DNA of 64,000 nt from an uncultured Muribaculaceae bacterium. Its GTDB lineage: Bacteria > Bacillota_I > Bacilli_A > RF39 > UBA660. A model generated the notes under the pieces. It searched no databases. It was given only the letters and a program-made list of their open reading frames with translations, and had not been told where the DNA came from. Both the position numbers and the translations under genes were made by a program. Shown one piece after another: positions 1 to 57,816 of the stretch. Within the stretch, counting starts at the first letter, position 1. Each line of letters opens with the position of its first letter. The DNA is taken from the NCBI GenBank assembly GCA_964447275.1, contig CAYURI010000001.1, positions 2,164-66,163 on the forward strand, given 5' to 3'.

Positions 1-471
1 TAAAGTTATTAAGTTTAAATCTTTATCTAACACATATACTTCTTTAATAAAATCAAACATCTCTTTAGTATAAGCTCCAGCATTAGAGACAATTGATCCA
101 CCAATTGTTCCAGGGATCCCTGTTGACCATTCTAGTCCTTTTAAATTCATATTAATCATATCCATCGAAAACTTATTAAGCATGACACCAGCACCAACTT
201 TTACTTCTGTGCCACTTATTTCTATTTCATTTATATTATCTAATTTAATAATTACGCCATCAAAATAGTTACTACTTAAAATAACGTTAGACCCACCACC
301 CAAGATAAAATATTTAATCTTGTTTATTCTTAGATACTTTATTAAATCTATTAAGTTTTCAATATTATAAGGTTTAACCAAATACTTAGCCTTAGTTGTT
401 ATTTTGTAAGTATTATAATTTGTTAAATCAATATTTTCTAATGTTTCGCCGTATTTGTTTAAATCATTCAT
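1..471 (-). CDS. murB: UDP-N-acetylenolpyruvoylglucosamine reductase MurB, N-terminal part; the C-terminus lies beyond the window edge
   Basis: Minus-strand translation from the ATG at 471..469 reads MNDLNKYGETL...ILGGGSNVIL...GIPGTIGGSIVSNAGAYTKEM, which is the MurB FAD-binding/GxGGxxxxNAGA-type signature. The ATG overlaps the murG stop by 1 nt. Confidence 0.75.
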   Translation of the reverse strand, partial: MNDLNKYGETLENIDLTNYNTYKITTKAKYLVKPYNIENLIDLIKYLRINKIKYFILGGGSNVILSSNYFDGVIIKLDNINEIEISGTEVKVGAGVMLNKFSMDMINMNLKGLEWSTGIPGTIGGSIVSNAGAYTKEMFDFIKEVYVLDKDLNLITL

Positions 472-1562
472 TATTTCACCATGTCCTTTATTATTTTATA
501 TATTAATTCACTGCTGTTTTTCACTTCAATTTTATTCAAATTATCTTTCATCTTTTGATAATTAGATTTATTATTAAGTAAATTATCAATTTCAGTTTTT
601 AAGTTTTTCGCATTTAATTTACTTTCTTCTAATAAAACTGCCGCTCCTACTTCCGATAATCTTAATACATTATAGTATTGATGATTATTGGGAACATAAG
701 GAGATGGGATTAAAATACTAGGAAGTTTTAAAGCGATTAATTCACTTATGGTTGATGCTCCGCCTCTATTAACAATTAAGTCAGTTTTAGTATTGTATAA
801 AAATGATGCTAAATTATCAACATAAGGAACAACATGAATATTACTAGGAAATTTTTCACCTTTAATAAAATCACTATAGAAGGCTTTACCAGTAACATAT
901 AAAACTTGATAATTAAGATCTTTAAGTTTTAGAAATTCTTTCATTTTACTATTTATTGAGGTTGAACCTTGACTACCAGCAACTATTACAACTAGTTTGT
1001 CTTTATCATTTAAATTATAAGCACTTCTTTTAATTGGTTTTTTTACTAAAACATTTTCACCACAAGGGTTCCCTGTTACATGAACTATATTATTTTTAAA
1101 ATACTCTTTAGTTTCTGGAAACGATACCGCAATAACATCAGTTAATTTAGCAAGCGCTTTATTAGATTTACCTGGTATCGCATTTTGTTCATGAACAAAA
1201 GTTTTAACACCTAGTTTGTGAGCGGCTTTAATGACTGGATATGTAACATATCCGCCAACGCCAATTACTATATCAGGTTTAAAATCTTTAATGATCGCTA
1301 AACATTGTTTATAAGATTTATAAATATAATAAATGTTTTTAATGTCTCTTAATGGTGTTCTAGAACTAAAGCCATAAATCTTTAAAGGAATGAATTTTAA
1401 TCCTTCACTTGGAATAATATCTTTTTCCATTCTGTTAAAAGTTCCAATATATAAGACTTCACTTTTAGGCTCTTTTGCCATTATTTTTCTAATAATTGCT
1501 AAGGCAGGATAAATATGTCCTCCAGATCCTCCAGCTGTAACTATAACTTTCAAATTAATCAC
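471..1562 (-). CDS. murG: Undecaprenyl-PP-MurNAc-pentapeptide-UDPGlcNAc GlcNAc transferase MurG
   Basis: 363 aa. N-terminal TAGGSGGHIYPALAI motif (the GGTGGH motif of MurG/GT28). Length and dcw-cluster context fit. Confidence 0.88.
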   Translation of the reverse strand: MINLKVIVTAGGSGGHIYPALAIIRKIMAKEPKSEVLYIGTFNRMEKDIIPSEGLKFIPLKIYGFSSRTPLRDIKNIYYIYKSYKQCLAIIKDFKPDIVIGVGGYVTYPVIKAAHKLGVKTFVHEQNAIPGKSNKALAKLTDVIAVSFPETKEYFKNNIVHVTGNPCGENVLVKKPIKRSAYNLNDKDKLVVIVAGSQGSTSINSKMKEFLKLKDLNYQVLYVTGKAFYSDFIKGEKFPSNIHVVPYVDNLASFLYNTKTDLIVNRGGASTISELIALKLPSILIPSPYVPNNHQYYNVLRLSEVGAAVLLEESKLNAKNLKTEIDNLLNNKSNYQKMKDNLNKIEVKNSSELIYKIIKDMVK

Positions 1563-1678
1563 CTTTAATTTATTATACTATAAAAAGACTAATATTTAAT
1601 CTATTTTTATAAAGCAAATGTAAAATAGCAATCATTTAATTCTTATGATATACTCTTATCAGTTGGAGAGATTATAAT

Positions 1679-3163
1679 ATGTTAAAAGATATCATAACTT
1701 TTTTAGGGAACTCTTATTTAGAAAGTAAAGAAATATATAATACGATTGGTACAGTCATTGGCATAATGGCTTTTTATAAGACCATTTATATATTTATTGG
1801 ACTATTTTTCACAAGAAAATTTAAGCCTGCGAAAAAAAATCATAAATATGCGATTATGATCGCGGCTCGTAATGAAAAAAATGTTATTGGTAACTTACTT
1901 GATAGTATTAATAAGCAAGATTATCCTAAAGATTTAGTAACAATTTTTGTTGTTGCTGATAATTGTACTGATAATACCGCTGAAATTGCTAGAAGCAAAG
2001 GTGCTATCTGCTATGAAAGATTTGATAATGAAAAAAAGACCAAAGGTTTTGCTTTACAATATTTATGCGAAAAAATTGAAGAAGATTATGGTCGAATGAA
2101 CTATGAAGGATATTTTATTTTTGATGCTGATAACCTTCTTAATACTGATTATATAACTAGAATGAACGAAGCCTTTGATGCTGGCGAAAAGATTATTACA
2201 TCATATAGGAATACTAAGAACTTTGATGAAAATTGGATTGCTTCTACTTATGGGCTTCATTGGATTAGATCAATTAGAATGAATCACAGAGCTAGGTCAG
2301 TATTAAGACTTGCTACTAATATCCAAGGTACTGGGTTTTTATTTACTAACAAGATTATTGAACATGGTTGGAAGTATACTTCTTTAACGGAAGACAGAGC
2401 TTTAACTGCTGATGCTGTTGCTCAAGGATACCCAATTACTTATAATGATAAAGCAGAGTTTTTTGATGAACAACCTACTAGTTTAAAAATTGCTTTAAGA
2501 CAACGTTTAAGATGGTCTAGAGGTCATTTAGAAGCTTTTGTAGAAAGTGGTCCATATTTATTTTTAAATATCTTTTTAGGTAAATTATTCTTAAAAACTA
2601 AATGGCACCAAGTAACCCAAAAAAAGCCCAAGACATTTAAAAATATTTTACTTAGCATTTTAGAGTCAATTAGGCATCGTTTTGCTTCTTTCGATACTTT
2701 AATGCAACTTACTCCTTTTGCTATTCTAAACCTCTTTAAATGGCTTATAGTACCATTTATTATTGGTGCTTGTTATTACTACTTAAATGGGATGAATAAT
2801 ATTGATTTACTAAAAGGTGGTACTTATCTAGCCAAAGCAATTAATCATTTCTTTAATTTAAATATTAGTATTGCTCCTGGTACAAATGCCCTACTAATTG
2901 GTATGCTAATTACGATTTGGTTTAGGTTATATTTTAGGATTGGAAATTACTTAGAAAGTATTATAACCCCGATATATTTATTTATTATTGAAAGAAAAAG
3001 AATTATTAAAATTCCTTTCCTAAAAAAAGTGTTATACTCCTTTACTTGGCCAATCTTTGATATTATTGGCAGATATACATCGTATGTTGCGCTATTTAAA
3101 AAAGTTACTTGGAAACCAATTCCTCATAATAGTAAAATAACTATTGAAGACTTAAAAAAATAA
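1679..3163 (+). CDS. Processive family-2 glycosyltransferase, membrane-bound (cellulose-synthase/PgaC-like fold)
   Basis: 494 aa. N-terminal TM segment, then a GT2 core with DxD (FDAD), TED and QRLRW (QxxRW) motifs, then a C-terminal multi-TM region. A good RBS (GGAGAG) precedes the ATG. Confidence 0.72.
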   Translation: MLKDIITFLGNSYLESKEIYNTIGTVIGIMAFYKTIYIFIGLFFTRKFKPAKKNHKYAIMIAARNEKNVIGNLLDSINKQDYPKDLVTIFVVADNCTDNTAEIARSKGAICYERFDNEKKTKGFALQYLCEKIEEDYGRMNYEGYFIFDADNLLNTDYITRMNEAFDAGEKIITSYRNTKNFDENWIASTYGLHWIRSIRMNHRARSVLRLATNIQGTGFLFTNKIIEHGWKYTSLTEDRALTADAVAQGYPITYNDKAEFFDEQPTSLKIALRQRLRWSRGHLEAFVESGPYLFLNIFLGKLFLKTKWHQVTQKKPKTFKNILLSILESIRHRFASFDTLMQLTPFAILNLFKWLIVPFIIGACYYYLNGMNNIDLLKGGTYLAKAINHFFNLNISIAPGTNALLIGMLITIWFRLYFRIGNYLESIITPIYLFIIERKRIIKIPFLKKVLYSFTWPIFDIIGRYTSYVALFKKVTWKPIPHNSKITIEDLKK

Positions 3164-3175
3164 ACTATCACTAGT

Positions 3176-5077
3176 TTATTTTTTTGTTAGAGTGTCAAAG
3201 TAATCATACTTTAAAGTTAAATCATTTCTAATAATTAAATTATTTACTAAAGTATTTTTTTCTTCTAAACGAATATCAGTAATCTTTTTATTATTAGTAA
3301 CTTCACCACCATCAACATAAACATTGCCATCATACCAAGAATAATCACTAAAAAATACTATTCCATCATAATTACTAGCTAAAGCATCACTACCAATATA
3401 ATTAATCTTATTATATTTAATGCCAAATAAATTAAGAACAGTTGGTAAAATATCTAATTGGGAAGTCACTTCTTTAATTGTCTTCTTTGTCTTACCATTA
3501 TCCCAGATAAAAAATGGCGTATTATTAATTAAATTATTATCAGTTTCTTTATACTTAGCTAAAATGGTCTGATCATTTAAAGTATATAAATAGTGATCAG
3601 TAAATACCACAATAACCGTATTATCAATTAAATTGTTGGCTTCTAGTTTTTGAAGTAATAATTCAACCATATAATCAGTTTCTTTAGCTTGTCTTCTCGC
3701 GCATTCTTCTTCGGTCATCTCCACAAACTCTACTTCTTTACCTTCATTATCTAAGTCATATAGAAGTTTACAAACTCCACTTACATTAGTAAAAGGTAAA
3801 TGAGTAGAATAAGTTATAATATAATCAACAAATTTTTGATTACTAGGAAACATTAAATTACTAAAATCTTCGTTGTTAATTAATTCTCTATCTAGCTCAT
3901 ATGTATCATCACTATATTCTTCCATATCAACTAGGCCATAATAATGATCATAACCCCAACTATCATAGTTAATACTTCTGGAATAGTATTCTTTGGTATT
4001 CATATGAAAAGCATTAACTACATAACCATCACTTTTGAATAATTTGGCCATCGCATAAGGAAAATTATTGCTACTAAATGAATAAGCATTTTCGGTATAA
4101 GAAATTGGTACAACAAAACCAGTATTAAGAGAAAACTCAGAATTAAAAGTTGATCCCCCACCCGTATAAAAAGAATAGTGTTTATTAGAAAAGTTAATTG
4201 AATTACTAAGCATATTATATAAAGTTGGCGTATCAGTTTTATTAAGTAACCAACTATCAATACCTTCTAATTGTAAAAAAATTAAGTTCTTTCCTTGATA
4301 TTTCCCGGTATATTTATTTGATTTAGTTACTTCATTATTACTATACATTTGATCAAGTAAGGCAAGTTCACTTTCATCTAATTCTTGGTCTCTTAAATAA
4401 GTAACAAAAAAGTTTCTTACCGAGTATTCAAACAAACCACTAACTTGCATACTTTTATTACTATCATTAAACGATAAATAAATATTACGTGGATTTTTCC
4501 ATGTACTCCATACTAAATCAGTATTGGCCTTCCCTAAAAACATTGGTGCTATCGTATGAAGTGATAAGAAAAGAATTAAAATAATACTAAGACGTTTAAA
4601 ACTATATTTTCTTCTAATTGGGGTTTTAATAAGTCCCCATATAAAAGCAATAATTATAATCCCTAAAAAGATATATACTAATGGATTACAATTTTTTATT
4701 GCACTCCAGAAATAAACTGAGCCTTCTTTAGCAGATTCCATTAAACTAAAACTAAAAAAGTTAGATGATAAAGAATAATAAACATTATTAACCACAAATA
4801 AACCAATAAAAACTAAATTAACAATAATATAAATTATTTTACCAGCATATTTTTTAAGTGATAAAGCTACCCCAATAAATAAAAGAATATATAAAAATGT
4901 AAAAAAGTTAGGTACAAAGCGATATATTTTATAAAAATGTATTCCTCTACCTAAATATCTAGTCATTAAATCCATTAATACTAATGGTAATGCCATATAT
5001 AAAATATAAATGTGTTTTTTAATAAAATGCCACACTTTATGTAAGATATCTTTAAAATCAATTTTTGCTAATTTCAT
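3176..5077 (-). CDS. LtaS-family (lipoteichoic acid synthase-like) sulfatase-domain membrane protein, paralog 1
   Basis: 633 aa. About 5 N-terminal TM helices plus an extracellular alkaline-phosphatase-superfamily domain (LQLEGIDSW, GGGSTFNSEFSLNTG, STHLPF motifs resembling LtaS). Confidence 0.68.
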   Translation of the reverse strand: MKLAKIDFKDILHKVWHFIKKHIYILYMALPLVLMDLMTRYLGRGIHFYKIYRFVPNFFTFLYILLFIGVALSLKKYAGKIIYIIVNLVFIGLFVVNNVYYSLSSNFFSFSLMESAKEGSVYFWSAIKNCNPLVYIFLGIIIIAFIWGLIKTPIRRKYSFKRLSIILILFLSLHTIAPMFLGKANTDLVWSTWKNPRNIYLSFNDSNKSMQVSGLFEYSVRNFFVTYLRDQELDESELALLDQMYSNNEVTKSNKYTGKYQGKNLIFLQLEGIDSWLLNKTDTPTLYNMLSNSINFSNKHYSFYTGGGSTFNSEFSLNTGFVVPISYTENAYSFSSNNFPYAMAKLFKSDGYVVNAFHMNTKEYYSRSINYDSWGYDHYYGLVDMEEYSDDTYELDRELINNEDFSNLMFPSNQKFVDYIITYSTHLPFTNVSGVCKLLYDLDNEGKEVEFVEMTEEECARRQAKETDYMVELLLQKLEANNLIDNTVIVVFTDHYLYTLNDQTILAKYKETDNNLINNTPFFIWDNGKTKKTIKEVTSQLDILPTVLNLFGIKYNKINYIGSDALASNYDGIVFFSDYSWYDGNVYVDGGEVTNNKKITDIRLEEKNTLVNNLIIRNDLTLKYDYFDTLTKK

Positions 5078-5139
5078 CTATTTCACCACGCTAAAATTGT
5101 ACCATTTTTAGAGGATGATGTAAATTACTTTAAAAAAGC

Positions 5140-5176
5140 CTTTACTAAAAGAAAAAAGTAACAATCGTTACTTTTA
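5140..5176 (-). terminator. Rho-independent terminator downstream of mraY
   Basis: Inverted repeat AAGTAAC-aatc-GTTACTT directly after the mraY stop, followed on the minus strand by a T-run (plus-strand ctaaaagaaaaaag). Confidence 0.5.
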
Positions 5177-6166
5177 AAGCCATACACCATAGATTATCGC
5201 AATCATGGCAAATATTAATCCGACCACCCAGAATGTTTTAACAATATCAGTTTCCTTCCAACCAAGTTGTTCAAAATGATGATGTAAAGGCGCCATTAAT
5301 AATACTTTAGTTTTGAATTTGCGAATCATAAAAATTTGAATTAAAGAACTTAATGCTTCAATTACAAATACGCCACCTACTAATATTAAAGAAAATTCAT
5401 GGCGAGTAATGATAGCTATGGTACCAAGGGCACCACCTAATGCTAGTGCTCCAGTATCACCCATAAATATTTTAGCGGGATGACTATTAAATATTAGGAA
5501 ACCTAATAAGCCACCAATTAAAATAAAGGAAAAGATTGCCACATCTTGATATCCGGTCATCCAAGTTGTGTTCCAGGTAATAAGTCCATAAGCAAGGAAA
5601 GCTATTAAAGATAACCCGGTAGCTAGGCCATCTAAACCATCCGCTATATTTACGGCATTAGTTGTACCAACTAAGACACAGAAAATAAATATACCAAATG
5701 CCCAACCTAGTGGTAAATCAATACCTAAAAAACTAAGACTTACATTAGTTACTCCACCATGATTCATAAATATATAAAAGAATACTAATGTAATAAGGCC
5801 TTGAATAAGTAATTTGGTTGATATTTTTAAGCCTTTATTATTTTTGAATTTTATCTTTAAAAAATCATCAACAAATCCTAATAAAGCATATGATAAAAAG
5901 ACAAAAACCACAATCATTAAGTTAGAACTTAATGTAATACTGCCTCTTAAGTACAATATTAATAAAGCAATCATCGTTGATAAGATGAATATCAATCCAC
6001 CTATTGTTGGTGTCCCTTGTTTTGCTAAATGTCTTTCTCCTATTGTTTGACTAACATTTTGTTTAAATTTAAATCTTTTTAAAATCGGAATTAAAATAAA
6101 TCCTAATCCTAAAGCTAAAATAAATCCTAACATGATTGCTAGAGAAGCTTTTGCTAAAATTAACAT
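5174..6166 (-). CDS. mraY: Phospho-N-acetylmuramoyl-pentapeptide transferase MraY
   Basis: 330 aa polytopic membrane protein with NAVNIADGLDGLA, PAKIFMGDTGALALGG and HHHFE motifs diagnostic of MraY. Confidence 0.85.
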   Translation of the reverse strand: MLILAKASLAIMLGFILALGLGFILIPILKRFKFKQNVSQTIGERHLAKQGTPTIGGLIFILSTMIALLILYLRGSITLSSNLMIVVFVFLSYALLGFVDDFLKIKFKNNKGLKISTKLLIQGLITLVFFYIFMNHGGVTNVSLSFLGIDLPLGWAFGIFIFCVLVGTTNAVNIADGLDGLATGLSLIAFLAYGLITWNTTWMTGYQDVAIFSFILIGGLLGFLIFNSHPAKIFMGDTGALALGGALGTIAIITRHEFSLILVGGVFVIEALSSLIQIFMIRKFKTKVLLMAPLHHHFEQLGWKETDIVKTFWVVGLIFAMIAIIYGVWL

Positions 6167-6201
6167 ATTATAACCTCTTTTCTAATAAATATAATAATTG
6201 T

Positions 6202-7401
6202 TTAACTTAAATTATGTAAAACATCTAATATTTCTGAACATTGTTCCGCCTCTACATCATTTAAAAGTGTACCAGTGGAATCAAAAAGCCTTGGGAATTC
6301 AGTTTCATTCATTATCAGTTCCACATGATGTGCTTCATAATCATTCCAACTTTTTGGCCAATCTACAATTGGAGGGACTCTTTGTAGCCCAGCATCAGCA
6401 TATAGTTTGTCCATATCAACAAAGGTTCCTTCAATAGAAACTAAAGAAAGATTACTAGCACTAGGACTAGATACTGTCACATCATTTGATTGGACAACAT
6501 TTGTTAAATTATTAACTATATATTTTTCATATTGTTCCGGTACAATTGTCCCTTCAGGTATTTTAGCATAGCATCCAGAACTAATATTTTTGTTATATAT
6601 CATTTCCTCAGGAGTACAATCAATAGTATTATAAAAAACATTGTATGCCGATTCAGAAACTGCTGTTTTATTTTGCCTAATTGTTACTATATCAGAGCCA
6701 TTATTATAATTTATATTAATGCTATTACCAGTTCCATAGTCTGCAGCAAACCCTTTACGATGTAAAGACCCTGGATTATTGTGATTTTGATTTATCCCGC
6801 CAACAATAGGCACATGAATACCCAGATTACTTAAAACATTAATAACTCCTTGAAACCTCCAGGCAAAGTTTCCATTTGATTTAATATGTAACCCGGTAAC
6901 TGGGTCCAAAACAGTATATCCAGAAACCTTATTTCCTCCTCCAAGTGGCCTAGCTGAAATAGGAAATTTCCCCTTCATATTAAGGAGCATATCATATGTT
7001 ACTTCTACATACTTACCTTTTTCATCATAAGTATAAAGCTTTTTTTCATATAAATTTTTTAAATTATCTAAAGTAATAAATCCCAATTCAAAAAGCAATA
7101 AACTTTGACTAAAAGCTTTCATAATTTCTTCTGATGTACTATAATCTATATCTTTATAAAGACTAATCATTTTTTCATATAAATTTGAAACATTATCACA
7201 GCTTGTTTTACAACTTTCAACACTTGATGCAGCTCCTGATAATATTGATGATGCACTACATCTATTAGCTATCTTTGCTGGGATATTAAGTTTTATACTT
7301 CTTATAGAATCGGCTATATTTAATAATTTATTGCCATTATCTTTTGAAGCAATTCGCCCATTATCAACACTTTCAAAATTAAAAGTCGTTAAATCTCTCA
7401 T
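6202..7401 (-). CDS. Candidate T7SS-associated effector/toxin with a possible LAS/M15-like zinc-peptidase motif
   Basis: 399 aa with no TM or signal peptide. It is the last gene of the esx module. It contains SLHRKGFAAD (SxHxxGxAxD) and a downstream EAHH (ExxH), resembling VanY/LdcB-type peptidoglycan peptidases. The spacing between the motifs is longer than in canonical M15. Confidence 0.4.
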   Translation of the reverse strand: MRDLTTFNFESVDNGRIASKDNGNKLLNIADSIRSIKLNIPAKIANRCSASSILSGAASSVESCKTSCDNVSNLYEKMISLYKDIDYSTSEEIMKAFSQSLLLFELGFITLDNLKNLYEKKLYTYDEKGKYVEVTYDMLLNMKGKFPISARPLGGGNKVSGYTVLDPVTGLHIKSNGNFAWRFQGVINVLSNLGIHVPIVGGINQNHNNPGSLHRKGFAADYGTGNSININYNNGSDIVTIRQNKTAVSESAYNVFYNTIDCTPEEMIYNKNISSGCYAKIPEGTIVPEQYEKYIVNNLTNVVQSNDVTVSSPSASNLSLVSIEGTFVDMDKLYADAGLQRVPPIVDWPKSWNDYEAHHVELIMNETEFPRLFDSTGTLLNDVEAEQCSEILDVLHNLS

Positions 7402-7404
7402 AAG

Positions 7405-7806
7405 CTACTCTCCTTCTATAAATTTTCTTTCTGCTTCTCTAAAAGTCGTTGCAGGAGTCTTTTCTTTAAAGCTTCTTTCTGCTTTTCTGAAAGTTGTTTT
7501 GGCTGTTTTGTTTGCTTCTGCCGCTTTTCTGGCTGCTTCTGCTGCCGCTATAGCTTCTTCTTCTTCAATTTTTTGGGCTGTTGAAATCATTATTCCGCCA
7601 GCTGATACAATTGAATTAGCAGATCCTTCTAAAGCTGAAGCTATATTATTTAGTTTCTGTACAGATATATTAATAGATGGCTCACTATTTGTTGCCTCAA
7701 TATCACTGCCAACAGCTCTTAATGATTTAGCAATATCCTTTAATTCTTCAGATTTTATATTTAAATTTTTTGATTGATTAGTTGCAGTCGTCAATAAAGC
7801 TCCCAT
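7405..7806 (-). CDS. Small helical protein in the T7SS substrate module; possible LXG/WXG-like N-terminal partner of the downstream toxin ORF
   Basis: 133 aa, predicted all-helical, with an ALEG (LxG-like) segment. The C-terminus has a tandem 13-aa repeat TTFRKAERSFKEK/TTFREAERKFIEG. It is in the same frame as the 399-aa ORF, separated only by TAG-CTT-ATG. A strong RBS AGGAGG lies upstream. Confidence 0.4.
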   Translation of the reverse strand: MGALLTTATNQSKNLNIKSEELKDIAKSLRAVGSDIEATNSEPSINISVQKLNNIASALEGSANSIVSAGGIMISTAQKIEEEEAIAAAEAARKAAEANKTAKTTFRKAERSFKEKTPATTFREAERKFIEGE

Positions 7807-7824: not shown

Positions 7825-7866
7825 GATATATTTATTATAACAACTTCTTTAGAAATTGACAATACT
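7825..7866 (-). promoter_or_regulatory. Putative sigma-A promoter for the 133-aa/399-aa toxin operon
   Basis: Minus strand reads TTGTCA - 17 nt - TATAAT, followed by AGGAGG and the ATG at 7806. Confidence 0.4.
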
Positions 7867-7867: not shown

Positions 7868-7893
7868 CTAAAAAAAAAGCCGTTAGGCTTTTT
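7868..7893 (-). terminator. Rho-independent terminator after the WXG-like gene
   Basis: AAAGCC-taac-GGCTTT hairpin overlapping the stop at 7892, followed on the minus strand by a T8 run. Confidence 0.55.
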
Positions 7894-8191
7894 AAATGGC
7901 TGTCCCTGATTCTGTTCCAATGGCTGTATCAGCTTCTTGATATAAATTAACTGTTTTAGTTAAGAATGTAGAGTAATTCATTATTTCTGTATAAAAAGCT
8001 TCAAATTTTGCTGATAAATTTTTAAAGTTTGTATAAACATTTTGAGCGCCCTCACTTTGATAAACTTCTGTGGTGTTTATCTTTGACATTCTTTGATCAA
8101 CACTTTCCAAAATATCTTTTAATTTCTGCGAAGATGTCCTTAGCATGCTCGCCGAATCATTCATTTGTGAATATGTTACTTTATCTATCAT
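7892..8191 (-). CDS. WXG100-like small secreted protein (EsxB-like; degenerate WXG)
   Basis: 99 aa helical protein immediately downstream of esxA. It has a C-terminal YQEAD (YxxxD/E-type export motif). No W-x-G is present (SEG at the equivalent position). Confidence 0.45.
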   Translation of the reverse strand: MIDKVTYSQMNDSASMLRTSSQKLKDILESVDQRMSKINTTEVYQSEGAQNVYTNFKNLSAKFEAFYTEIMNYSTFLTKTVNLYQEADTAIGTESGTAI

Positions 8192-8203: not shown

Positions 8204-8494
8204 CTAAACTCTTGAAGCAGCACTGCTTGATTCATCTTGAACACGTTTAATCTTATTAGAAGCATTAACACAAAACTGCCCACAATTTCTAATTGAAGCC
8301 ACTAAAGCATCCAAAGTTGGTTTTTTTTCATGAATCCTTTGAACAAACTGTTTATTATCTGGTCCACTCCAGCCTTGCTCTAGAGCATCAATAATCGAAA
8401 ATATTTTTTTTAATTCTTGTTCTGCTAAATCACCATCATTTGTAACTGCTTTACCTAAATTGTCTAATTCAACAATATTTACTTTAAAACTCAT
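8204..8494 (-). CDS. esxA: WXG100 family protein EsxA
   Basis: 96 aa helical hairpin protein with a central W-S-G (LEQGWSGPDNKQF) at the typical WXG position. It is adjacent to essC/esaB. Confidence 0.7.
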   Translation of the reverse strand: MSFKVNIVELDNLGKAVTNDGDLAEQELKKIFSIIDALEQGWSGPDNKQFVQRIHEKKPTLDALVASIRNCGQFCVNASNKIKRVQDESSSAASRV

Positions 8495-8512: not shown

Positions 8513-8785
8513 TTATATCAGTATTAATTTAATTCCGTCAACAATTCCTGCTTCTTTAATAGTTTTATTAATATCTAAAACTTCACCGTTGGAAGCATTT
8601 ATTAAGTTAAACTCTTTGTTTATGAGAAAAGCTCCATATGACAATTCATTAATGGCTTTAGTAATTAAACTAATTACTTTAAACACTTTTTTATTAGCTG
8701 GTATTAGTACTTCAAAACTATTTTCCATTGTTGGCACTAAAATTTCAATTAATATTTTGTTCATTATTGCCTCCTTTAGAATCAT
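8513..8785 (-). CDS. esaB: YukD/EsaB-like ubiquitin-fold T7SS protein
   Basis: About 83-90 aa (alternative start MNKILIEI at 8764). The size and hydrophobic pattern are typical of the YukD beta-grasp family, and it sits between essC and esxA. The 5' end overlaps the essC stop. Confidence 0.55.
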   Translation of the reverse strand: MILKEAIMNKILIEILVPTMENSFEVLIPANKKVFKVISLITKAINELSYGAFLINKEFNLINASNGEVLDINKTIKEAGIVDGIKLILI

Positions 8786-11700
8786 CTACTATTAATTTAA
8801 CTAGTACTGGATTACCTCTTTTTACTACATACCCAAAGTCATTAGCAATTTTTTTATTATATTCCTGGCTACTTTTAACTAGCTTTAAAGAAAACTGATT
8901 ACCAAGCCCACTACCAAGCCAAATACCTTCATCATCTCTTATTAATAATTTATACCATTCTTCATACTCCAACTTTTTAACATTTTCAATTGTATTAACA
9001 ATAACATAGCTTATTTTATTAAATGTTTCACCATTTTTAATAATGTTTTTGAATTTTTCAATATAAGTTGGATCTAATTTCTTAAATAAATGAGTTGTAT
9101 CAATTATTATGCAAATTAAATGCTTTATATTCGCTAAAGATTTTAAATCGTAATTACTGTTTTTATACATTTCAGCCATTTTTTCGACATTAGCATTAAG
9201 ATTATCTATAAAACCATTGAAATTAGTATCAAAATAAATAATATCATCAGCAAATTTATCTTTAGAAAATATTTTTTTGGCATCAATTACCACAGTAATA
9301 TTTTTATTCATACTAGAAAACTGATTAATAAATGGTGGCATATAACTCATGATCGGTTCTTCATCATCAGCTGTTATTAAAGTCCCATAATTATTTTCAA
9401 AATTCCAATTAGCGATCTGTAATGATTCTTTTTCAATACCAAGAGGAACTAAAGAAATACCATTTTGAGCATAAGCGACTTCTTTTCTCGTAACTTTTTC
9501 TGGTAATACTGGAACTCCAGAAGCGACTTTTTGGTTTTTTGCTTTTAACTTTTTACAAATTATTTTTATATAATCATTAACCATATCTGGTTCATATGGG
9601 TAAGCAGTTTGAAACTCATTAATTTCATCAAATTTTACTAATCCTCTACCAACGGCTTTAGAAGGATATTTACCATGAACATTACCAAATATAGAATTGT
9701 AATCAGAATTATCATTTAATTCTAAAACTAGATTTTGTTTAAAGTTTTGTTTTAATTTATATCTAATGTTATTGGCACCTGATACTGTTATTAAGAAGAC
9801 AACACCATATTTTGGCCCTTCTCTTGTTAAAACCACAAACATGTCTTCTAATTGATCATATGTTTCACTAAAAACTTCAAAATTATTAATAATCGCAACT
9901 ATTAAAGGTAGTTTCTCAGCTGAATTTCGATTATAAGAAACAAAATCACCATTATATTTAGAAAACAGCTTCTTTCTTTCTTCAATTGTTCTAAATAAAG
10001 TTTTTAATAAATTTAAGGTTTTTTCTTCCTCATGTAATAACACCACATCACCAACTTGAGGAGCATCTTTGAAAGCTGTTAATGTTTCAGCACCAAAATC
10101 CATAATATAAAAGTTTACCTCTGAAGATGAATGCTCAATTATTGAAGAATAAATAACATCTGTTAATAATAAGCTCTTTCCACTGCCATTACTACCATAA
10201 ATAATGGTGTTCCCACCCGTGGTTAAGTTTAATGTCAATAAGCCTTGTTTTTGGTTATCTGGATCATCATATTCACCAATAATTGGATTAATTAAATCAG
10301 ATAATTTTTGATAATTGTATTTCTTACGTAAATTATCTACATAAATAATATTAGGAATTCGATTCAACCATAATTGTTTTGGTTCTATTTTCTCTTCCTT
10401 AGCAATATTTATAATATAATTAATAATATTTGGTAAAACTTCGCCATAATTTTTCATATCAAAAATATTCTTTTCTTCTTTAACATTTTTAATAATACTA
10501 CCAATATTATCAATAAAAGAAATATAAGGGTCAATTTTCTTTTTTAATTTATCAAGAGGAATATATTTTTCACCACACCAAGCTGATTGGCCTAAAGTAA
10601 ACATTTCATTATAGCCAACTTGAAGATAAAAGCGGCCAACATCTTTTAAATAAGCAGCTTCAGGCCGTTTTATCATATCATTACTATCAGATTGCTCTTG
10701 AACTTTTAAGCAAATTCTAAATCTACTATTACTCCAAATTTGATCATCAACTACCCCACTTGGTTTTTGAGTTGATAAGATTAAATGGATACCTAGGCTT
10801 CTACCAATTCTTGCCGCACTTATTAATTCGTCCATGAAATCTGGTTGCTGAGCTTTTAATTCAGCAAACTCATCACAAATAATAAATAAGTGGGAAATTG
10901 GTTCTTTTATGATTCCTTCACGATATAATCTTTGATATTTATATATATCAATTGTACTTTCATTTAATTTACCTTTTTCTTTTTTAAATAATTCCTGTCT
11001 TCTTCTAATTTCACTTTGAATAGAAGCTAATGATCTTTTCATTTCAATTGTATCTAAGTTAGTTATAGTTCCAACAATATGAGGTAGTTTTATACCCAAT
11101 TCGCGGTTTTCAAAAGCTCCAGCAATACCACCGCCTTTATAGTCAATTAAAATGAATGTTACTTCATCAGGATGAAAGTTTACCGCCATAGATAAAATAT
11201 AAGTAATAATAAGTTCACTTTTACCACTACCTGTCATACCAGCAATTAAACCATGAGGTCCATGGAATTTTTCATGTAAATCTAATTTAATTAAATTACC
11301 AAATTCATCGATGCCAATTGGAGTTTGTAAACTCATAAAAGGCGAATTTGTCTCCCAACGATTTTTTATATTTAGTTGTTCGATCTTACCAATATTATAC
11401 ATCTCCAAAAAGCCATAAGTAGTTGGTAGTGTTTCAGCTCCTTTAGGAATTTCAAGTGGTGTACTTGCCAATACCTGAGAACATTCTTCTAAATGCAATT
11501 CTTCATTAATATCAGCAATAAACTGAACTTGTTTTTCCGAAGTTAAATCATTTTCAATTATTCCTGATTTTAAGTCATCCCCTACTGAAACAAAATTAAC
11601 GCATTCATTAGGCAAATTAGCTAATCTGTTATTAAGAATTATTAAAGAGAAGCCAACGTTGCTTGTTGCACTTAAAATACTTTTAATAATTTCTAAATCA

Positions 11701-13373
11701 CGATATTTTTTTATATCATCAGTAAAAATAACAAAATGAGGACTATAATTATTGTTTTTTTCAGCACTTTCATCTTTTCTTTGTTGAATAATGTTTTCTA
11801 AATAACTAGATATTTGTTTGGCATCATCTAAATTAGTACCAAAAAATCTAATTGATTTATTGCTATTCCAAGAGTGAGGAAGGACTTTTAAATAATCCCA
11901 ATGATTTTTTGTATTATCAGTAAAAACAATAATTTTTAAGTCATCAGGGCTATGAAAAGCCATTAATTGTAGCAAAACTCCATCAAAGAACTTTTGAACT
12001 GTATCTAAGTTGCCAACAATCGCCGAAATAGGTTTTTTAGCAAAAGAAAAATGAACTGGAGCATCGGGAATATTTTTATAATTATTTTTAATCGCTACTA
12101 GCGGTTTAATTAAATTATCAGTTTCTAAAGAAAACTTTTCTTCAGGTACTTGAATATTTATTTCTGAAGGTACTGGACCAATACCAAATCTAATATCTAA
12201 AAAATCTTCATGAAAAGGTTCTCTTTCCCATAAAGTTTTTTGTTTATTTATAATGATATTTCTTACTTCATTTAAATTTTGAAACTTTTCATTCAGAATC
12301 TGACGTTGAATACTAATAATAGTTTTAATTTCTTGATTCTTTTCTTCAATATATTTAGAATATAGTTCTTGACGTTTTTTTTCGCGAGCTATTTTTTGTT
12401 TTTTTTCTAACTTTTTACTTAACATTGGCCACATAATCATTGTTATTAACATCGATGAAGCAATTAAAAGCGATGGAATTGCCGTTGTTAAAGATTTGCC
12501 TTGTGAAATAACACTGTTTATTGATGTAAAAGCTGTTACTGCTGAAGTCATTCCCATTGTTAAAGCTGGCCCAACAACATATATTAAAGGCATTTCTTGC
12601 ATATTTTCTTTAGGTGGAACAGGATCAATTATTATTTCAGCTTTTTCAATATTACCTTTAAATCTTGGTGATTTATAATAATAATCATCTTTTTTATAAA
12701 TTTCAATGTCTTCATCATCATCACTAGCTTCTTCGATAGCCTTTTGACTAGGATATTTTTTTATTTCAAAAAAGTTACCTTTTAGTTTCAAATTATTTTT
12801 AGGATTATTAATAAATAAATTATCTAATAAAACAATTATTTTTAATCCCATGATAAAAATAACATCACCATATTTTAAATCACTGGTTTTTAAATTTTCA
12901 CCATTTATATAAAAACCATTATCACTTTTTAAATCAATTATTGACCATTTTTTTTCTTTATAACTTAATTTACAATGATTAGCATTAACCAAAGAAGAAT
13001 TAAAAATAATGTTATTATCTTCACTATTACCAATCGTTATTTCACCTTCACTTTTTATTGCCATTTGAAAATAAGAAGGATCATTTATAGGGCTACAATA
13101 AATCAAAATGATCTCACCATTTTTTAATTTTAATTCATAAAATTCATAATTATTTAAAAAAATTTCGTTAACTTTTTCTTTATTAAATAAAATCGTAACT
13201 TCAGCATCACTTTTTATTAGCCATTTATCATTTACCGCTTCAATTATAATTAGTGGTCTTTCATTGCCGTTAGCGTCTTTATCACTAAGCCAAAAACTGC
13301 CATATACTTTTATAGGCAACAATTGATCAGCAATTTGATTTTTTTTGATAATTGAAATTCTCACCGCTAACAC
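8745..13373 (-). CDS. essC: Type VII secretion FtsK/SpoIIIE-family ATPase EssC (YukB)
   Basis: 1542 aa with an apparent GTG start. It has N-terminal FHA-like repeats, two TM helices and three FtsK-like P-loop domains. The first domain carries LHEKFHGPHGLIAGMTGSGKSE...LIDYKGGG...HLFIICDEFAELK...GRSLGIHLILSTQKPSGVVD, near-identical to S. aureus EssC D1 motifs. Degenerate Walker A copies follow (GSNGSGKS). Confidence 0.9.
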   Translation of the reverse strand: MLAVRISIIKKNQIADQLLPIKVYGSFWLSDKDANGNERPLIIIEAVNDKWLIKSDAEVTILFNKEKVNEIFLNNYEFYELKLKNGEIILIYCSPINDPSYFQMAIKSEGEITIGNSEDNNIIFNSSLVNANHCKLSYKEKKWSIIDLKSDNGFYINGENLKTSDLKYGDVIFIMGLKIIVLLDNLFINNPKNNLKLKGNFFEIKKYPSQKAIEEASDDDEDIEIYKKDDYYYKSPRFKGNIEKAEIIIDPVPPKENMQEMPLIYVVGPALTMGMTSAVTAFTSINSVISQGKSLTTAIPSLLIASSMLITMIMWPMLSKKLEKKQKIAREKKRQELYSKYIEEKNQEIKTIISIQRQILNEKFQNLNEVRNIIINKQKTLWEREPFHEDFLDIRFGIGPVPSEINIQVPEEKFSLETDNLIKPLVAIKNNYKNIPDAPVHFSFAKKPISAIVGNLDTVQKFFDGVLLQLMAFHSPDDLKIIVFTDNTKNHWDYLKVLPHSWNSNKSIRFFGTNLDDAKQISSYLENIIQQRKDESAEKNNNYSPHFVIFTDDIKKYRDLEIIKSILSATSNVGFSLIILNNRLANLPNECVNFVSVGDDLKSGIIENDLTSEKQVQFIADINEELHLEECSQVLASTPLEIPKGAETLPTTYGFLEMYNIGKIEQLNIKNRWETNSPFMSLQTPIGIDEFGNLIKLDLHEKFHGPHGLIAGMTGSGKSELIITYILSMAVNFHPDEVTFILIDYKGGGIAGAFENRELGIKLPHIVGTITNLDTIEMKRSLASIQSEIRRRQELFKKEKGKLNESTIDIYKYQRLYREGIIKEPISHLFIICDEFAELKAQQPDFMDELISAARIGRSLGIHLILSTQKPSGVVDDQIWSNSRFRICLKVQEQSDSNDMIKRPEAAYLKDVGRFYLQVGYNEMFTLGQSAWCGEKYIPLDKLKKKIDPYISFIDNIGSIIKNVKEEKNIFDMKNYGEVLPNIINYIINIAKEEKIEPKQLWLNRIPNIIYVDNLRKKYNYQKLSDLINPIIGEYDDPDNQKQGLLTLNLTTGGNTIIYGSNGSGKSLLLTDVIYSSIIEHSSSEVNFYIMDFGAETLTAFKDAPQVGDVVLLHEEEKTLNLLKTLFRTIEERKKLFSKYNGDFVSYNRNSAEKLPLIVAIINNFEVFSETYDQLEDMFVVLTREGPKYGVVFLITVSGANNIRYKLKQNFKQNLVLELNDNSDYNSIFGNVHGKYPSKAVGRGLVKFDEINEFQTAYPYEPDMVNDYIKIICKKLKAKNQKVASGVPVLPEKVTRKEVAYAQNGISLVPLGIEKESLQIANWNFENNYGTLITADDEEPIMSYMPPFINQFSSMNKNITVVIDAKKIFSKDKFADDIIYFDTNFNGFIDNLNANVEKMAEMYKNSNYDLKSLANIKHLICIIIDTTHLFKKLDPTYIEKFKNIIKNGETFNKISYVIVNTIENVKKLEYEEWYKLLIRDDEGIWLGSGLGNQFSLKLVKSSQEYNKKIANDFGYVVKRGNPVLVKLIVDDSKGGNNEQNIN

Positions 13374-13454: not shown

Positions 13455-14384
13455 TTATTTCTGATTAATATCTATAAATCTTTTTATGCTTGACCAATAT
13501 TTTTTATAACCCATCCAATAACTAGACCCATGGCCAGCAGCTTTTATAAGAAGCTTTGACTTTACGCCATTTTTCCTCTTATATAACTCATATAGCATAG
13601 AAGAAGGAACAAAAGTATCTTTCCCACCATGAATAAATAGCATTGGAACTTTTGATCTTTCCACTGCATTTAATGGTTTTACGTTTTCTAACCAATATCC
13701 TGCCCTTATTTTAGTAATTAGACTTAAAATAGGGATTAATGGAAAAGATGGTAATTTATATAATACTTTGGCTTGATAAGAAAATTCCTTAGTTATGCTA
13801 CTATAACCACAATCTTCAATTATCCCCTTAGCATTATCTGGAAGTTTTTCTCCTGAAGCCATCATTACTGTTGAAGCCCCCATGGAAGCGCCAAATAAAA
13901 ATATTTTTATATCTTTATATGTTCTATTTAAAAATTCAAGCCATTTAATTAAATCAAACTTATCTAAGTAGCCAAGACCAATAAAACTTCCTTCACTTTT
14001 ACCACAAGCTCTAGCATCTATGAGTAACAGATTATAACCTAAATTATAAAATAATTTAGCTCCAGGAATAACAGAATTAATATTACCAAAATAGCCATGA
14101 CTAATTGTAACCCAAATATTACTCATTTTATTTTCAATAATTACTCCATGTAATTTGAGATTGTCATGAGATTTAATATAAACTTCTTTTTTATCGATTT
14201 TCTCATACCATAGTTTACCTTCTTCGATTAGTTTTTGGCGAAAATCTGAATCAGGTAATTTATTATGTTCAGCATCAAAAATAAATGCTTTATCTTTTTT
14301 AGCATTTATTGCAATATTGAAAAAATAATTAGCTAAAATAAACAGCATAATTAAAATCAAAACCATTATTGAAATCCAAATCAT
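13455..14384 (-). CDS. Membrane-anchored alpha/beta hydrolase
   Basis: 309 aa. N-terminal TM, GASMGAST (GxSxG nucleophile elbow) and HGG motif. Confidence 0.65.
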   Translation of the reverse strand: MIWISIMVLILIMLFILANYFFNIAINAKKDKAFIFDAEHNKLPDSDFRQKLIEEGKLWYEKIDKKEVYIKSHDNLKLHGVIIENKMSNIWVTISHGYFGNINSVIPGAKLFYNLGYNLLLIDARACGKSEGSFIGLGYLDKFDLIKWLEFLNRTYKDIKIFLFGASMGASTVMMASGEKLPDNAKGIIEDCGYSSITKEFSYQAKVLYKLPSFPLIPILSLITKIRAGYWLENVKPLNAVERSKVPMLFIHGGKDTFVPSSMLYELYKRKNGVKSKLLIKAAGHGSSYWMGYKKYWSSIKRFIDINQK

Positions 14385-14397
14385 AAATTCTCCTTTA

Positions 14398-15243
14398 TTA
14401 TTTTAATTTTTCAAATATAACAACATGGGAATGCCCAGTAAATCTTTTTTTGCATTCCTCATAAGTAATATTATCCTTTGTTATTTCAATATATTTTTCA
14501 TAATGCCTTTGTTCAACTTTAGTCTTTTTGTAACAATAAATTCTTAAATCATATTTATTTGCCATCCAGTTAAAAGTTTGTTTTGAAAATTCAAACTGAT
14601 GATGGGGAGGATAATGTAATTCCCCTTTTCCTGTTATTGCTAAGATGCTCTCTGGATCAGGCGTTCCAATAATTAGTTTGCCACCTTTTCTTAAAAGCTT
14701 AATATTTTCTTTAATAAACTTTTTTGTACCAAAAACATGTTCTAATACTTCATGATGACAAACAACATCAAATTTACTTTTCATCATTTTTATTGGTTTC
14801 GATATAACATTTAAACCCTTACTTTGACATAGTTTTACTGCGTTTTTATTGTATTCATTACCGATTACATTTGGAACAAAATTATTTATATATTCTAAAA
14901 AAGAACCATTACCAGAGCCTATTTCCATTAAATCTTTAGGATTAATTTTTTTAATAATTTCTAATGCTATTTTATAAGTTGGCCTAAAAACTGGATAATA
15001 GCCATCTACTTTTTCTAAATTTTCATATAATTTTTTAGAATCTGATATATGATAATTATAATAATATAATCCACAATTATCGCATTTTCTTTTTATTAAT
15101 ACTTTATTATTATAAATTATTGATATTGGATTGAATCCTCGTTTACTTACCCACATATCAATCAAATCATTAATATAAATACTTTTTACTTCTTTATAAT
15201 TTTTTGAATTGCATAGTGGGCATCTTTTAATTTCTTTTATCAT
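14398..15243 (-). CDS. Class I SAM-dependent methyltransferase with N-terminal Cys4 zinc ribbon
   Basis: True start is MIKEIKRCPLCN at 15243. The 48-codon upstream extension in the ORF track is the translation of the tRNA-Leu gene. CxxC...CxxC followed by a Rossmann MTase (EIGSGNGSF). Confidence 0.6.
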   Translation of the reverse strand: MIKEIKRCPLCNSKNYKEVKSIYINDLIDMWVSKRGFNPISIIYNNKVLIKRKCDNCGLYYYNYHISDSKKLYENLEKVDGYYPVFRPTYKIALEIIKKINPKDLMEIGSGNGSFLEYINNFVPNVIGNEYNKNAVKLCQSKGLNVISKPIKMMKSKFDVVCHHEVLEHVFGTKKFIKENIKLLRKGGKLIIGTPDPESILAITGKGELHYPPHHQFEFSKQTFNWMANKYDLRIYCYKKTKVEQRHYEKYIEITKDNITYEECKKRFTGHSHVVIFEKLK

Positions 15244-15264
15244 ACAATCTCCTAAGCTATTAAT

Positions 15265-15350
<86 letters not shown>

Positions 15351-15383
15351 TTAAAAAAATTATATCATTATAATATAATTTTC

Positions 15384-17561: not shown

Positions 17562-17574
17562 ATAAATTACCTCA

Positions 17575-17871
17575 TTAGTTATTATTTATCGTTTTGATAT
17601 TACTATTATTATAAGATAATCCTTCCGCTTTTGCAATGTCTTGAATATTATCTAAAGATGCTAGTTCATTAATTTTCATATATAAGCTTTCATTTAAGCC
17701 GGTTTGTTTAGTTATTTTACTTTTAAGTCTTTCTACCTCAATATTTGTTTTAGTTAATGTTGCTTTAGAAAAAACTATTAACATCGGAGTCGCAATTAAC
17801 ATCATAAAAAGTATAAAAAACAAGAACTTCTCGCCTTTAAATAATTTTATTTTTGCTCCTCTTTGTTTCAT
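17575..17871 (-). CDS. ftsL: Cell division protein FtsL-like
   Basis: 98 aa bitopic protein (TM + coiled coil) located between rsmH and the PBP gene. Confidence 0.55.
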   Translation of the reverse strand: MKQRGAKIKLFKGEKFLFFILFMMLIATPMLIVFSKATLTKTNIEVERLKSKITKQTGLNESLYMKINELASLDNIQDIAKAEGLSYNNSNIKTINNN

Positions 17872-17873
17872 AT

Positions 17874-18815
17874 CTATAACCTCTCTATAACTCTTAACTT
17901 TGCACTTTTGCTTCGACTATTTTCATTTAGTTCTTCTAAGTCGGCAATTATTGGTTTTTTATTAATTAATTTAATAATTGGCTTATATTCTTCAGGTATT
18001 TCGTTTAAGCCTTTTACTAAAGGATCAATTTCACTATATTTATTAAATATTTGTTTAACTATTCTATCTTCTAAAGAATGAAATGTTATAACACATATTC
18101 TGCCACCCTTTTTAAGTAAGTTAATGGCATCGGGAAGGACTTTGGCAAGTGTTTCTAATTCTTTATTAACTTCAATTCTAATTGCTTGAAAAATCTTTCT
18201 TTCGGGATGATTTTGTATAAAGTATTTTACTGGTACAGAAGATTTAATTATTTCAACTAGTTCAGTCGTTCTTTCAATTGCCTTTACTTGTCTTCTTTCA
18301 ACTATCTTCTTAGCAATTACTTTAGAAAACCTTTCTTCTCCATAGGTGAAGAAAATATCCGTTAATTTGGTTAATTCATAATTATTTATGACATACTTGG
18401 CATCAAGTTTTTGTTCTTGATCCATCCGCATATCTAATATGGCATCTTTCATAAAGGTAAAGCCTCTACTAGCATCATCAATTTGGGGACTACTTAGTCC
18501 TAAATCAAAGATAATACCATCTACTTTATCAATTCCTTCTTTAAGAAGACATTCTTTTAAATTAACAAAGTTACTATGAATTAATTTAAAGTTTTGACCA
18601 ATACTAGATAACTCTTTTTGACTAAATGTAAGAGCCTCTTGATCTTGATCGAAGGCGAATAGGAAACCCCTTTTTAATTTCCTTAATATCTCTTTGCTGT
18701 GTCCAGCATAACCAAGTGTTGCATCTACGTATATACCATCACTACTAATATTTAATAACTCAATAGTTGTTTTTTTTAAAACACTATAATGCTTCATGAT
18801 TAGGTACTTCTTCAA
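17874..18815 (-). CDS. rsmH: 16S rRNA (cytosine1402-N4)-methyltransferase RsmH (MraW)
   Basis: 313 aa with [14 protein letters not shown] and FDLGLSS motifs. It follows mraZ. Confidence 0.9.
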
Positions 18816-19230
18816 ATAGATGTTCAGCTATGTCGGCTAATTTATCTTCATTATCAGTGAAGAATTTGTCCCATCCCTCTTTTGACCAAACTTCTAGTCG
18901 GTCGTTTGCGCCGATTATCACAACTTCTTTGTTCAAATCGGCGTAACTAACCAATGGGGAGGTAATGTTAATTCGACCTTGTTTGTCAAATTCACATTCA
19001 GCAGCACCTGATAGAAAGAATCTAATAAAATCTCTGGCGTCTTTCTTAGTAAATGGTAGAGTTTTTAGCCTGCTTACAATACTATTCCATTCTGTTAATG
19101 AATAAATAAATAGACATTTTTCTAAGCCTCTAGTTACAATGAACTTTTCGCCCAATTCATAACGAAACTTAGATGGAATAATTAATCTGCCTTTGTCATC
19201 AATCGTATGATGATACTCGCCCATAAACAT
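18784..19230 (-). CDS. mraZ: Transcriptional regulator MraZ
   Basis: [23 protein letters not shown] is the duplicated MraZ/SpoVT-AbrB-like domain. The true start is most likely the MFMGEY Met at 19230. The longer ORF start at 19263 translates the operator repeats. Confidence 0.85.
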
Positions 19231-19234
19231 TGAA

Positions 19235-19290
19235 ATCCCCCACTTTCTACCACTATGTGGCACTTGCTACCACTATAATACACCACAACA
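19235..19290 (-). promoter_or_regulatory. Putative MraZ operator/promoter: GTGG direct repeats at about 10-bp periodicity
   Basis: The coding strand reads GTTGTGGTGTATTATAGTGGTAGCAAGTGCCACATAGTGGTAGAAAGTGGGGG, giving GTGG/GTGC repeats spaced 13, 10, 10 and 10 nt directly upstream of mraZ. MraZ is known to bind GTGG[G/T]-type direct repeats in its own promoter. Confidence 0.4.
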
Positions 19291-55989: not shown

Positions 55990-56034
55990 TTATTATAAAC
56001 CAAAAGCAAAGAAAAATCACTATAAAGTAGTGAT

Positions 56035-57567: not shown

Positions 57568-57683
57568 AAGTCCTCTATTCTATTTTTATTATATCTTTTT
57601 ATCTTTTTATAGTCAATAACGGAAAAAAGTTTATAAAATTCTTGAATTAAAAATTATAATGTTATATAATCTTACTTGTGTAT

Positions 57684-57760: not shown

Positions 57761-57770
57761 TTAAAAAAAA

Positions 57771-57799: not shown

Positions 57800-57816
57800 T
57801 TTAAATAAAAAGAGCC

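Follow-up and report, generated by a model that had tools for sequence, protein, structure and literature searches.

The enzymes known to travel as cargo of type VIIb secretion systems (T7SSb) are nucleases, NADases, lipases, membrane-depolarising toxins, a lipid II phosphatase, and glycoside hydrolases. Bacteriolysins of the lysostaphin and zoocin type (class III bacteriocins) are secreted zinc peptidases from the wider LAS grouping that lyse competing cells; they are M23 enzymes that carry Sec signals and domains for wall targeting, and self-protection against them is achieved through wall modification, not through an inhibitor protein. Wall enzymes are also associated with secretion systems, among them the Sec-dependent EssH. 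EssH is a CHAP enzyme needed for the S. aureus T7SSb to cross the wall (PMC13059805), and TagX of the Acinetobacter type VI secretion system (T6SS) is an L,D-endopeptidase of the LAS/VanY superfamily (Pfam PF13539) with two predicted transmembrane domains (PMC5061870). In another polymorphic-toxin system, toxin domains resembling VanY have been predicted (PMC12419801). In the searchable literature, we found no description of a LAS/M15-type peptidase as type VII secretion system (T7SS) cargo, nor of a T7SS module within the division/cell-wall (dcw) cluster. Here, we describe a putative case of the first and an instance of the second in a stretch of 64,000 nucleotides (the window) from an uncultured Muribaculaceae bacterium (contig CAYURI010000001.1), where a gene at 6202–7401 on the minus strand encodes a protein with a helical N-terminal region and a C-terminal LAS-fold domain (the LAS protein). 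With a probability of roughly 0.45, we regard this protein as a T7SS-exported zinc peptidase that acts with a cognate partner and cuts peptidoglycan stem peptides, and we lean towards a bacteriolysin-like effector directed against competitors. The analysis covers motif conservation, fold prediction, synteny, allele structure, and purifying selection, from which we infer zinc binding, catalysis, substrate, export route, the role of the partner, and the target cell.

Zinc-ligand motifs and fold of the C-terminal domain

The initial annotation had reported an open reading frame (ORF) of 399 codons at 6202–7401 without its strand; the ORF lies on the minus strand and starts with ATG, and the plus-strand translation across the same interval is full of stops. 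The two motifs on which that annotation was built are both present: SLHRKGFAAD at residues 212–221 (6739–6768, minus strand) and EAHH at residues 356–359 (6325–6336, minus strand). Its residue numbers His207 and Asp214 were, however, 7 too low; the motif residues are H214 and D221, and H207 is a separate histidine that is not conserved among relatives. Across all six reading frames of the window, SxHxxGxAxD is found a single time, and the number expected in a protein of this composition is about 1.3e-4. The match is not a chance one, because H214, G217, A219, D221, T224, E356, H358, and H359 are invariant in relatives down to 27–30% identity, together with additional polar and aromatic residues between D221 and E356. 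The His-x6-Asp and distal His of the LAS superfamily (H214-x6-D221 and H358/H359) are invariant in the 11 full-length sequences, all of which also carry the ExxH motif of M15/VanX type (E356-x-H358-H359) as E[AS]HH or EWHH and keep the Asp-to-Glu spacing at 135–144 residues; the distant relatives have E-W-H-H-[FY] at the Glu/His motif. Judged by these motifs, H214, D221, and H359 (or H358) are the predicted zinc ligands, and E356 would be the catalytic general base.

A full-length AlphaFold model was poor (pLDDT 57, below 50 in the motif region) and was not used. A model of residues 140–399, built from the 11-sequence alignment (pLDDT 80.5, pTM 0.81), has the central antiparallel sheet and flanking helix seen in solved LAS structures, with about 100 residues aligned in each comparison. 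The structural comparison figures were 6.6 for VanYB, 6.2 for both BaLdcB and VanXYc, 5.9 for VanXYg, 5.7 for VanX, 5.6 for Ply500, 5.5 for Drosophila Hh, 5.3 and 5.2 for Shh, 4.9 for LysB4, 4.6 for DacB, 4.0 for MepA, 3.6 for VldE, and 3.3 for the S. albus DD-peptidase. The first half of the LAS core (residues 140–224; 6730–6984, minus strand; boundaries approximate) comprises, from about residue 160, a β-hairpin, a helix, a strand, and the His-x6-Asp strand bearing SxHxxGxAxD. The second half (residues 329–399; 6205–6417, minus strand) comprises the helix KLYADAG, a strand, the E-A-H-H strand, and a C-terminal helix; the helix and the two strands match what an M15 domain usually has as its second half. 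The core is split by a conserved α/β insertion of ~105 residues (residues 225–328; 6418–6729, minus strand), in which Y232, S251, Y257, T259, Y278, K293, Y294, N301, and D307 are invariant. The structure comparisons returned no match to this insertion, which may form a substrate-binding lid; such a conserved inserted subdomain may define a new substrate specificity.

Sequence searches gave weaker signals. The Pfam and MEROPS M15 families (VanY PF02557, Peptidase_M15_2/3/4) did not match the LAS protein at E ≤ 1, and the M15 hidden Markov models (HMMs) matched none of 7 close-family sequences at E ≤ 10 and none of the distant relatives P0008–P0010. Pfam, NCBIfam, PADLOC, PHROGs, and PDB sequences yielded nothing significant for the LAS protein, its relatives, or its partner, so that the Pfam families to which the initial annotation pointed, Peptidase_M15/VanY and LXG, are without a significant match. 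With the insertion excised, 1 of 9 sequences matched PF13539 at E = 0.093, well short of the cut-off. Foldseek found nothing significant for the model in PDB and BFVD, and its non-significant top lists include VanXY, LdcB, Shh, and M15C entries. The family profile matched almost only hedgehog N-domains among PDB sequences (E about 0.6, sub-threshold), in an alignment that spans a helix through SxHxxGxAvD-T, the stretch that holds the zinc ligands in Shh. Removing the insertion in silico brought the PDB E-value to about 0.09, still sub-threshold, with the S. albus DD-carboxypeptidase also listed. The hhalign comparison of the domain profile with mouse ShhN gave a probability of 2%. Because these sequence signals are sub-threshold, the LAS assignment rests on the invariant ligand set and the unanimous fold matches. 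The C-terminal part of the protein is therefore supported as a LAS zinc-peptidase fold at the fold level, and the M15-type peptidase proposed initially stands at that level but not as a member of the curated M15 families.

Two readings would deprive the domain of an enzymatic role: a non-catalytic LAS/hedgehog-like domain that binds wall peptides or a receptor, or a LAS resemblance that is a modelling artefact. The sub-threshold sequence links would suit both, and the first would agree with the hedgehog N-domains as best sequence matches, the zinc site of which is often regarded as non-enzymatic, and with the missing M15 arginine described below. We consider them very improbable, since the full H/D/H and Glu set is invariant over deep divergence and independent methods point to LAS proteins alone. 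The hedgehog matches (Shh, Ihh, and Dhh; E 0.09–0.8, not significant) align over the first half alone, the second-half motif is ExHH here, unlike the ExxxHxH of Shh, and the biology is unrelated.

The protein differs from VanY, LdcB (DacB), VanXY, and VanX (MEROPS M15) in that (i) it has no HMM-level similarity to them; (ii) its core is split by the insertion; (iii) it lacks a signal peptide or membrane anchor and has instead an N-terminal helical region and T7SS linkage; and (iv) the G-[YW]-R-[ST] strand, whose conserved arginine in VanY/LdcB binds the terminal carboxylate of the substrate, is replaced by G-G-x-N. In the alignment of relatives this strand reads V-G-G-I-N, G-G-[YW]-N, or N-N-G-[AG], with no invariant arginine. 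An endopeptidase is thus likelier than a carboxypeptidase, because the carboxylate-binding arginine of the M15 carboxypeptidases is absent.

The secretion module and its chromosomal setting

As initially annotated, the LAS gene is the last of an esx-like module. The genes upstream of it, all on the minus strand, encode an EssC-type FtsK/SpoIIIE ATPase with an FHA domain (8745–13373; 1542 residues), a YukD/EsaB-like ubiquitin-fold protein (8513–8764; 83 residues by comparison with sister loci, with a sub-threshold Pfam match), WXG100 protein a (8204–8494; 96 residues, Pfam match just below threshold), WXG100 protein b (7892–8191; 99 residues, above the Pfam threshold), and a small helical protein (7405–7806; 133 residues, no signal peptide), which is encoded upstream of the LAS gene at a distance of 3 nt and recurs in every cassette. 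EssA, EssB, and EsaA genes were not seen within the locus of any of the genomes. Eight loci were recovered via the LAS protein or a neighbouring WXG100 gene, 2 of which are contig halves from one sample (loci and relatives are referred to below by L and P numbers). Wherever sequence is available, all 8 have the order mraZ-rsmH-ftsL-PBP-EssC-YukD-WXG100a-WXG100b-small-LAS-mraY-(LtaS-like, GT2)-murG-murB-divIB, where PBP is a penicillin-binding protein. That is to say, the dcw cluster contains an embedded T7SS-like module, with the PBP/ftsI-like gene on one side and mraY on the other, in a stretch usually occupied by murE/murF. In the window, the flanks of the module run from 13455 to 19263 and from 471 to 6166. 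The GC content of the module is uniform with that of the chromosome, and core genes lie all around it. This uniform GC content and the synteny in all relatives led us to reject recent horizontal acquisition of the module. A phage endolysin origin was also considered; the neighbourhood contains no phage genes, and what remains of the window is core chromosome.

A hairpin followed by a U-run (7870–7893, minus strand), which resembles a terminator, directly follows the WXG100b stop codon. It was not called by a consensus terminator scan. Beyond it lies a promoter-like site, TTGTCA-17-TATAAT with a TG (7834–7862, minus strand; 11/12), which is conserved in sister loci as TGTTATAAT; this extended −10 promoter is the best match in the region. 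Both elements are kept in 6 loci, and the hairpin stem shows compensatory changes. The LAS gene and the small gene would thus be co-transcribed from a promoter of their own.

The next gene, mraY (5174–6166, minus strand), follows the LAS gene after 35 nt, with only a ribosome-binding site (RBS) in between; across loci the spacer is 20–35 nt. The initial observation that no immunity-like gene lies 3′ of the LAS gene therefore holds. A promoter-like site (6191–6220, minus strand; 10/12) straddles the boundary between the LAS gene's 3′ end and the spacer, and L003 and L007 have TATAAT-like boxes in their LAS–mraY spacers; mraY may therefore be transcribed from a promoter of its own in addition to read-through from the cassette.

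The N-terminal region and the small helical partner

The LAS protein has no signal peptide or transmembrane segment, as claimed at the outset, given a peak 19-residue Kyte–Doolittle hydropathy of 1.48 and a polar N-terminus. Its N-terminal region likewise has no recognised domain, but it spans about 140 residues and not the ~200 first proposed, since the modelled LAS domain starts at about residue 160. Residues 1–139 (6985–7401, minus strand) are predicted to be helical or coiled-coil; they form helices in the full-length model (pLDDT below 50) and carry conserved [YF]xxx[DE] motifs at positions 9, 82, 108, and 123. The profile of this region matched only designed coiled coils in PDB, and hhalign comparison of the region and of the small partner with the WXG100 proteins of the locus gave probabilities of 1–2% (P 0.03–0.04). 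We consider residues 1–139 a putative T7SS-targeting and partner-binding part.

At the level of linkage, the protein has the hallmarks of a T7SS substrate: an EssC/WXG100 locus, no Sec signal, and a helical N-terminal region accompanied by a small helical partner. It resembles the LXG toxins of T7SSb in that (i) its gene lies downstream of essC and WXG100 genes and encodes no signal peptide; (ii) a helical N-terminal region precedes a C-terminal enzymatic domain; (iii) the gene immediately upstream is that of a small helical protein; and (iv) the locus varies between close relatives. Unlike LXG toxins, it has no LXG (PF04740) or DUF3130/TIGR04197 match in Pfam and NCBIfam, no immunity gene downstream, and no exchange of the toxin domain (LAS in 8 loci), and its N- and C-terminal parts diverge equally. 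The earlier idea of a T7SS toxin is thus upheld as to secretion linkage by locus and not as to membership of the LXG toxins; taken as a whole, that interpretation is partly supported.

In the mechanism that we favour, the small partner would bind the helical N-terminal ~140 residues, as Lap/WXG-type helpers do for LXG toxins, and the enzyme and its partner would be exported by the adjacent EssC ATPase. Outside the membrane, the zinc-dependent enzyme would cleave a peptide bond in peptidoglycan stem peptides, perhaps as a bacteriolysin-like effector aimed at competitors, which we find likelier than a housekeeping enzyme. A different role for the small protein is implied if the enzyme is a toxin acting in the cytoplasm, which would destroy the D-Ala-D-Ala or UDP-MurNAc-pentapeptide of rivals in the manner of VanX/VanXY; the small protein would then be its immunity protein, inhibiting this dipeptidase or pentapeptidase in the cytosol of the producer. 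Such a toxin is unlikely. LXG operons carry their small Lap-type helper genes upstream, unlike T7SS immunity genes, and the upstream position of the small gene follows the helper order. Allele types share a conserved N-terminal half of the small protein, which suggests contact with a conserved partner, and the LAS protein has no conserved arginine equivalent to the carboxylate clamp of VanX/VanY. The C-terminal tail of the small protein (7405–7500) contains a direct peptide repeat (TTFRKAERSF...TTFREAERKF); other alleles have no repeat and end differently.

Allelic variation and the possible target

Identities were compared among the window, L002, and L003. The neighbouring genes are 68–96% identical overall (EssC 86–89%, MraY 83–92%, WXG100 86–96%), whereas between the window and L002/L003 the small protein is 34–36% identical and the LAS protein 48% identical; between genomes in general, the pair is 34–54% identical. 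Nucleotide identity falls from 0.74–0.91 to 0.35–0.71 between about 7850 and 6201, an interval that corresponds to the small and LAS genes. The pair exists in at least 5 allele types, which share about 50% identity and are decoupled from the backbone: WXG100b is 96% identical between the window and L003 and 78% identical between the window and L011, and the LAS protein is 48% and 50% identical, respectively. The small partner co-varies with the LAS protein, and the N- and C-terminal parts of the latter diverge to the same degree. L003 carries 2 cassettes in tandem (9650–12931), the first with a small protein of 111 residues and a LAS protein of 411 residues and the second with proteins of 119 and 409 residues; the 2 LAS copies share only about 50% identity, and a separate TGTTATAAT promoter precedes each cassette. 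The ratio of nonsynonymous to synonymous substitution (dN/dS) of the LAS gene within allele types is 0.13 and 0.12 (PBP 0.13, EssC 0.08), with a peak of 0.24 in the insertion (residues 225–328). A pseudogene or relaxed selection was rejected on the basis of the values of 0.12–0.13. The cargo slot holds a LAS protein in 8 of the 8 loci and never another kind of cargo.

We lean towards a competitor-directed effector because at least 5 old allele types have been shuffled without regard to the backbone and the cassette can be duplicated. Backbone-independent shuffling, the tandem second cassette, and the co-variation of the partner fit an effector under frequency-dependent selection, and an effector of this kind has a modest lead over a self-directed wall enzyme. 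Self-protection by wall modification, as for the bacteriolysins, would explain the missing immunity gene here; no fem-like resistance gene was seen beside the LAS locus. If the protein is a toxin, one must ask what allows a Gram-positive producer to withstand its own wall peptidase in the absence of an immunity gene.

Four observations point to a self-directed wall enzyme: in 8 of the 8 loci the module is flanked by the division PBP and mraY, the cargo is always a LAS protein, no immunity gene is present, and purifying selection is at a level similar to that of PBP. These are what would be expected if a minimal T7SS-like exporter were hard-wired in the dcw operon and the LAS peptidase trimmed or cleaved the peptidoglycan of its own cell during growth or division, for example, in septum splitting or stem-peptide trimming. 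The vertical stability of the module (EssC 79–89% identical, GC content uniform with the chromosome) and the LAS–mraY spacer of just 20–35 nt, with an RBS and without a terminator, agree with such a housekeeping role. A housekeeping enzyme should, however, track the backbone, and the small and LAS genes diverge far from their neighbours with block-like boundaries, their allele types are decoupled from the backbone, and one genome has 2 divergent tandem cassettes. We therefore judge this role somewhat less probable. A related proposal, slightly more doubtful still, is that in this low-GC lineage the stripped-down T7SS (EssC, YukD, and two WXG100 proteins), placed between the septal PBP and mraY, is a dedicated exporter of a single enzyme, a LAS autolysin of a hitherto unclassified kind for the cell's own wall, the allele diversity being driven by phage or competitor pressure on the exposed enzyme. 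If self-directed, the protein would represent a rare case of a T7SS in cell-wall housekeeping, as a route for an autolysin.

The same divergence bears on whether the protein is a dedicated wall hydrolase that opens peptidoglycan locally so that the T7SS can span the wall. EssH (PMC13059805) and TagX (PMC5061870) are precedents for such an apparatus helper; like them, the LAS protein is predicted to be a peptidoglycan peptidase encoded with a secretion system, its gene lies inside the secretion locus every time, and its faint Pfam hint is PF13539, the family of TagX. However, EssH has a CHAP fold, and TagX is membrane-anchored and conserved with its system, whereas the LAS protein is hypervariable, has a co-varying partner, can be duplicated, and lacks an anchor or signal peptide. 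In the same genome pairs, it is 48% identical against 87–89% for EssC and 86–96% for WXG100, so it is not conserved with the apparatus. An apparatus helper is accordingly improbable, and the anti-competitor effector remains our preferred reading. The setting is in any case unusual: a secretion module lies in the dcw operon directly upstream of the essential mraY, its one cargo cassette is multi-allelic, and no gene for immunity is present.

Distribution of the family and other features of the loci

The LAS family is invisible to Pfam and NCBIfam and extremely rare. Searching 5.8 billion clusters by word index yielded only 7 relatives; 3 distant relatives, which match residues 175–390 only, came from an exhaustive HMM search across 1.84 billion representatives, and a further search added one more. 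The total is about a dozen sequences among ~15 billion proteins, including the 11 full-length relatives. Both scans of GTDB-representative genomes and both JGI metagenome scans yielded no further loci, and an exhaustive profile search returned no proteins that share the N-terminal part only. A helical gene product of ~134 residues is encoded upstream in 2 of the 3 distant-relative contexts, and EssC/WXG100 genes are absent from all 3 within the available sequence.

The distant relatives P0008 (L005, 10001–11698) and P0009 (L008, 968–2503) have shorter, different N-terminal regions and, after the LAS domain, a long low-complexity linker (Pro/Thr-rich or Asn/Ser-rich) that leads to a C-terminal domain of ~80 residues with a faint DUF6591 hint. 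In L009 (8815–12606), the stretch of about 1.2 kb ahead of the P0010 gene contains no convincing ORF; on the 3′ side of the gene are opposite-strand integrase/transposase-like fragments and, beyond them, a second, incomplete copy of the gene's own 5′ region (12170–12604), an arrangement that suggests mobile-element-mediated duplication. A conserved run of genes lies upstream of the P0010 and P0012 genes (L009, 561–8815; L004, 541–7954) and consists of a T2SSE-type ATPase gene, about 10 small genes without annotation, and a gene for YtxH; it may encode a pseudopilus-like or other export system. In the L006 contig, the LAS gene, mraY, the LtaS-like gene, and the GT2 gene are fragmented, though intact elsewhere. 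These splits look like frameshift sequencing errors and not real pseudogenes, and P0004 (249 residues) and P0011 (63 residues) are therefore likely pieces of one LAS gene.

Around the module, the window alone has an α/β-hydrolase (S33/S9-like) gene and an S-adenosylmethionine (SAM)-methyltransferase gene (13455–14384 and 14398–15387, minus strand) between the PBP gene and essC; in L002, L003, and L010, essC directly follows the PBP gene. Between mraY and murG lie genes for an LtaS-like sulfatase-family membrane protein (3176–5077, minus strand) and a GT2 glycosyltransferase (1679–3163, plus strand), both conserved in sister loci, and a second LtaS-like paralogue is encoded at 37540–39594 (minus strand). 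Farther along the window, the GC content peaks at 0.377 (56001–58000), compared with about 0.27, around an ORF of 510 residues (56035–57567) and a tRNA gene (57684–57757).

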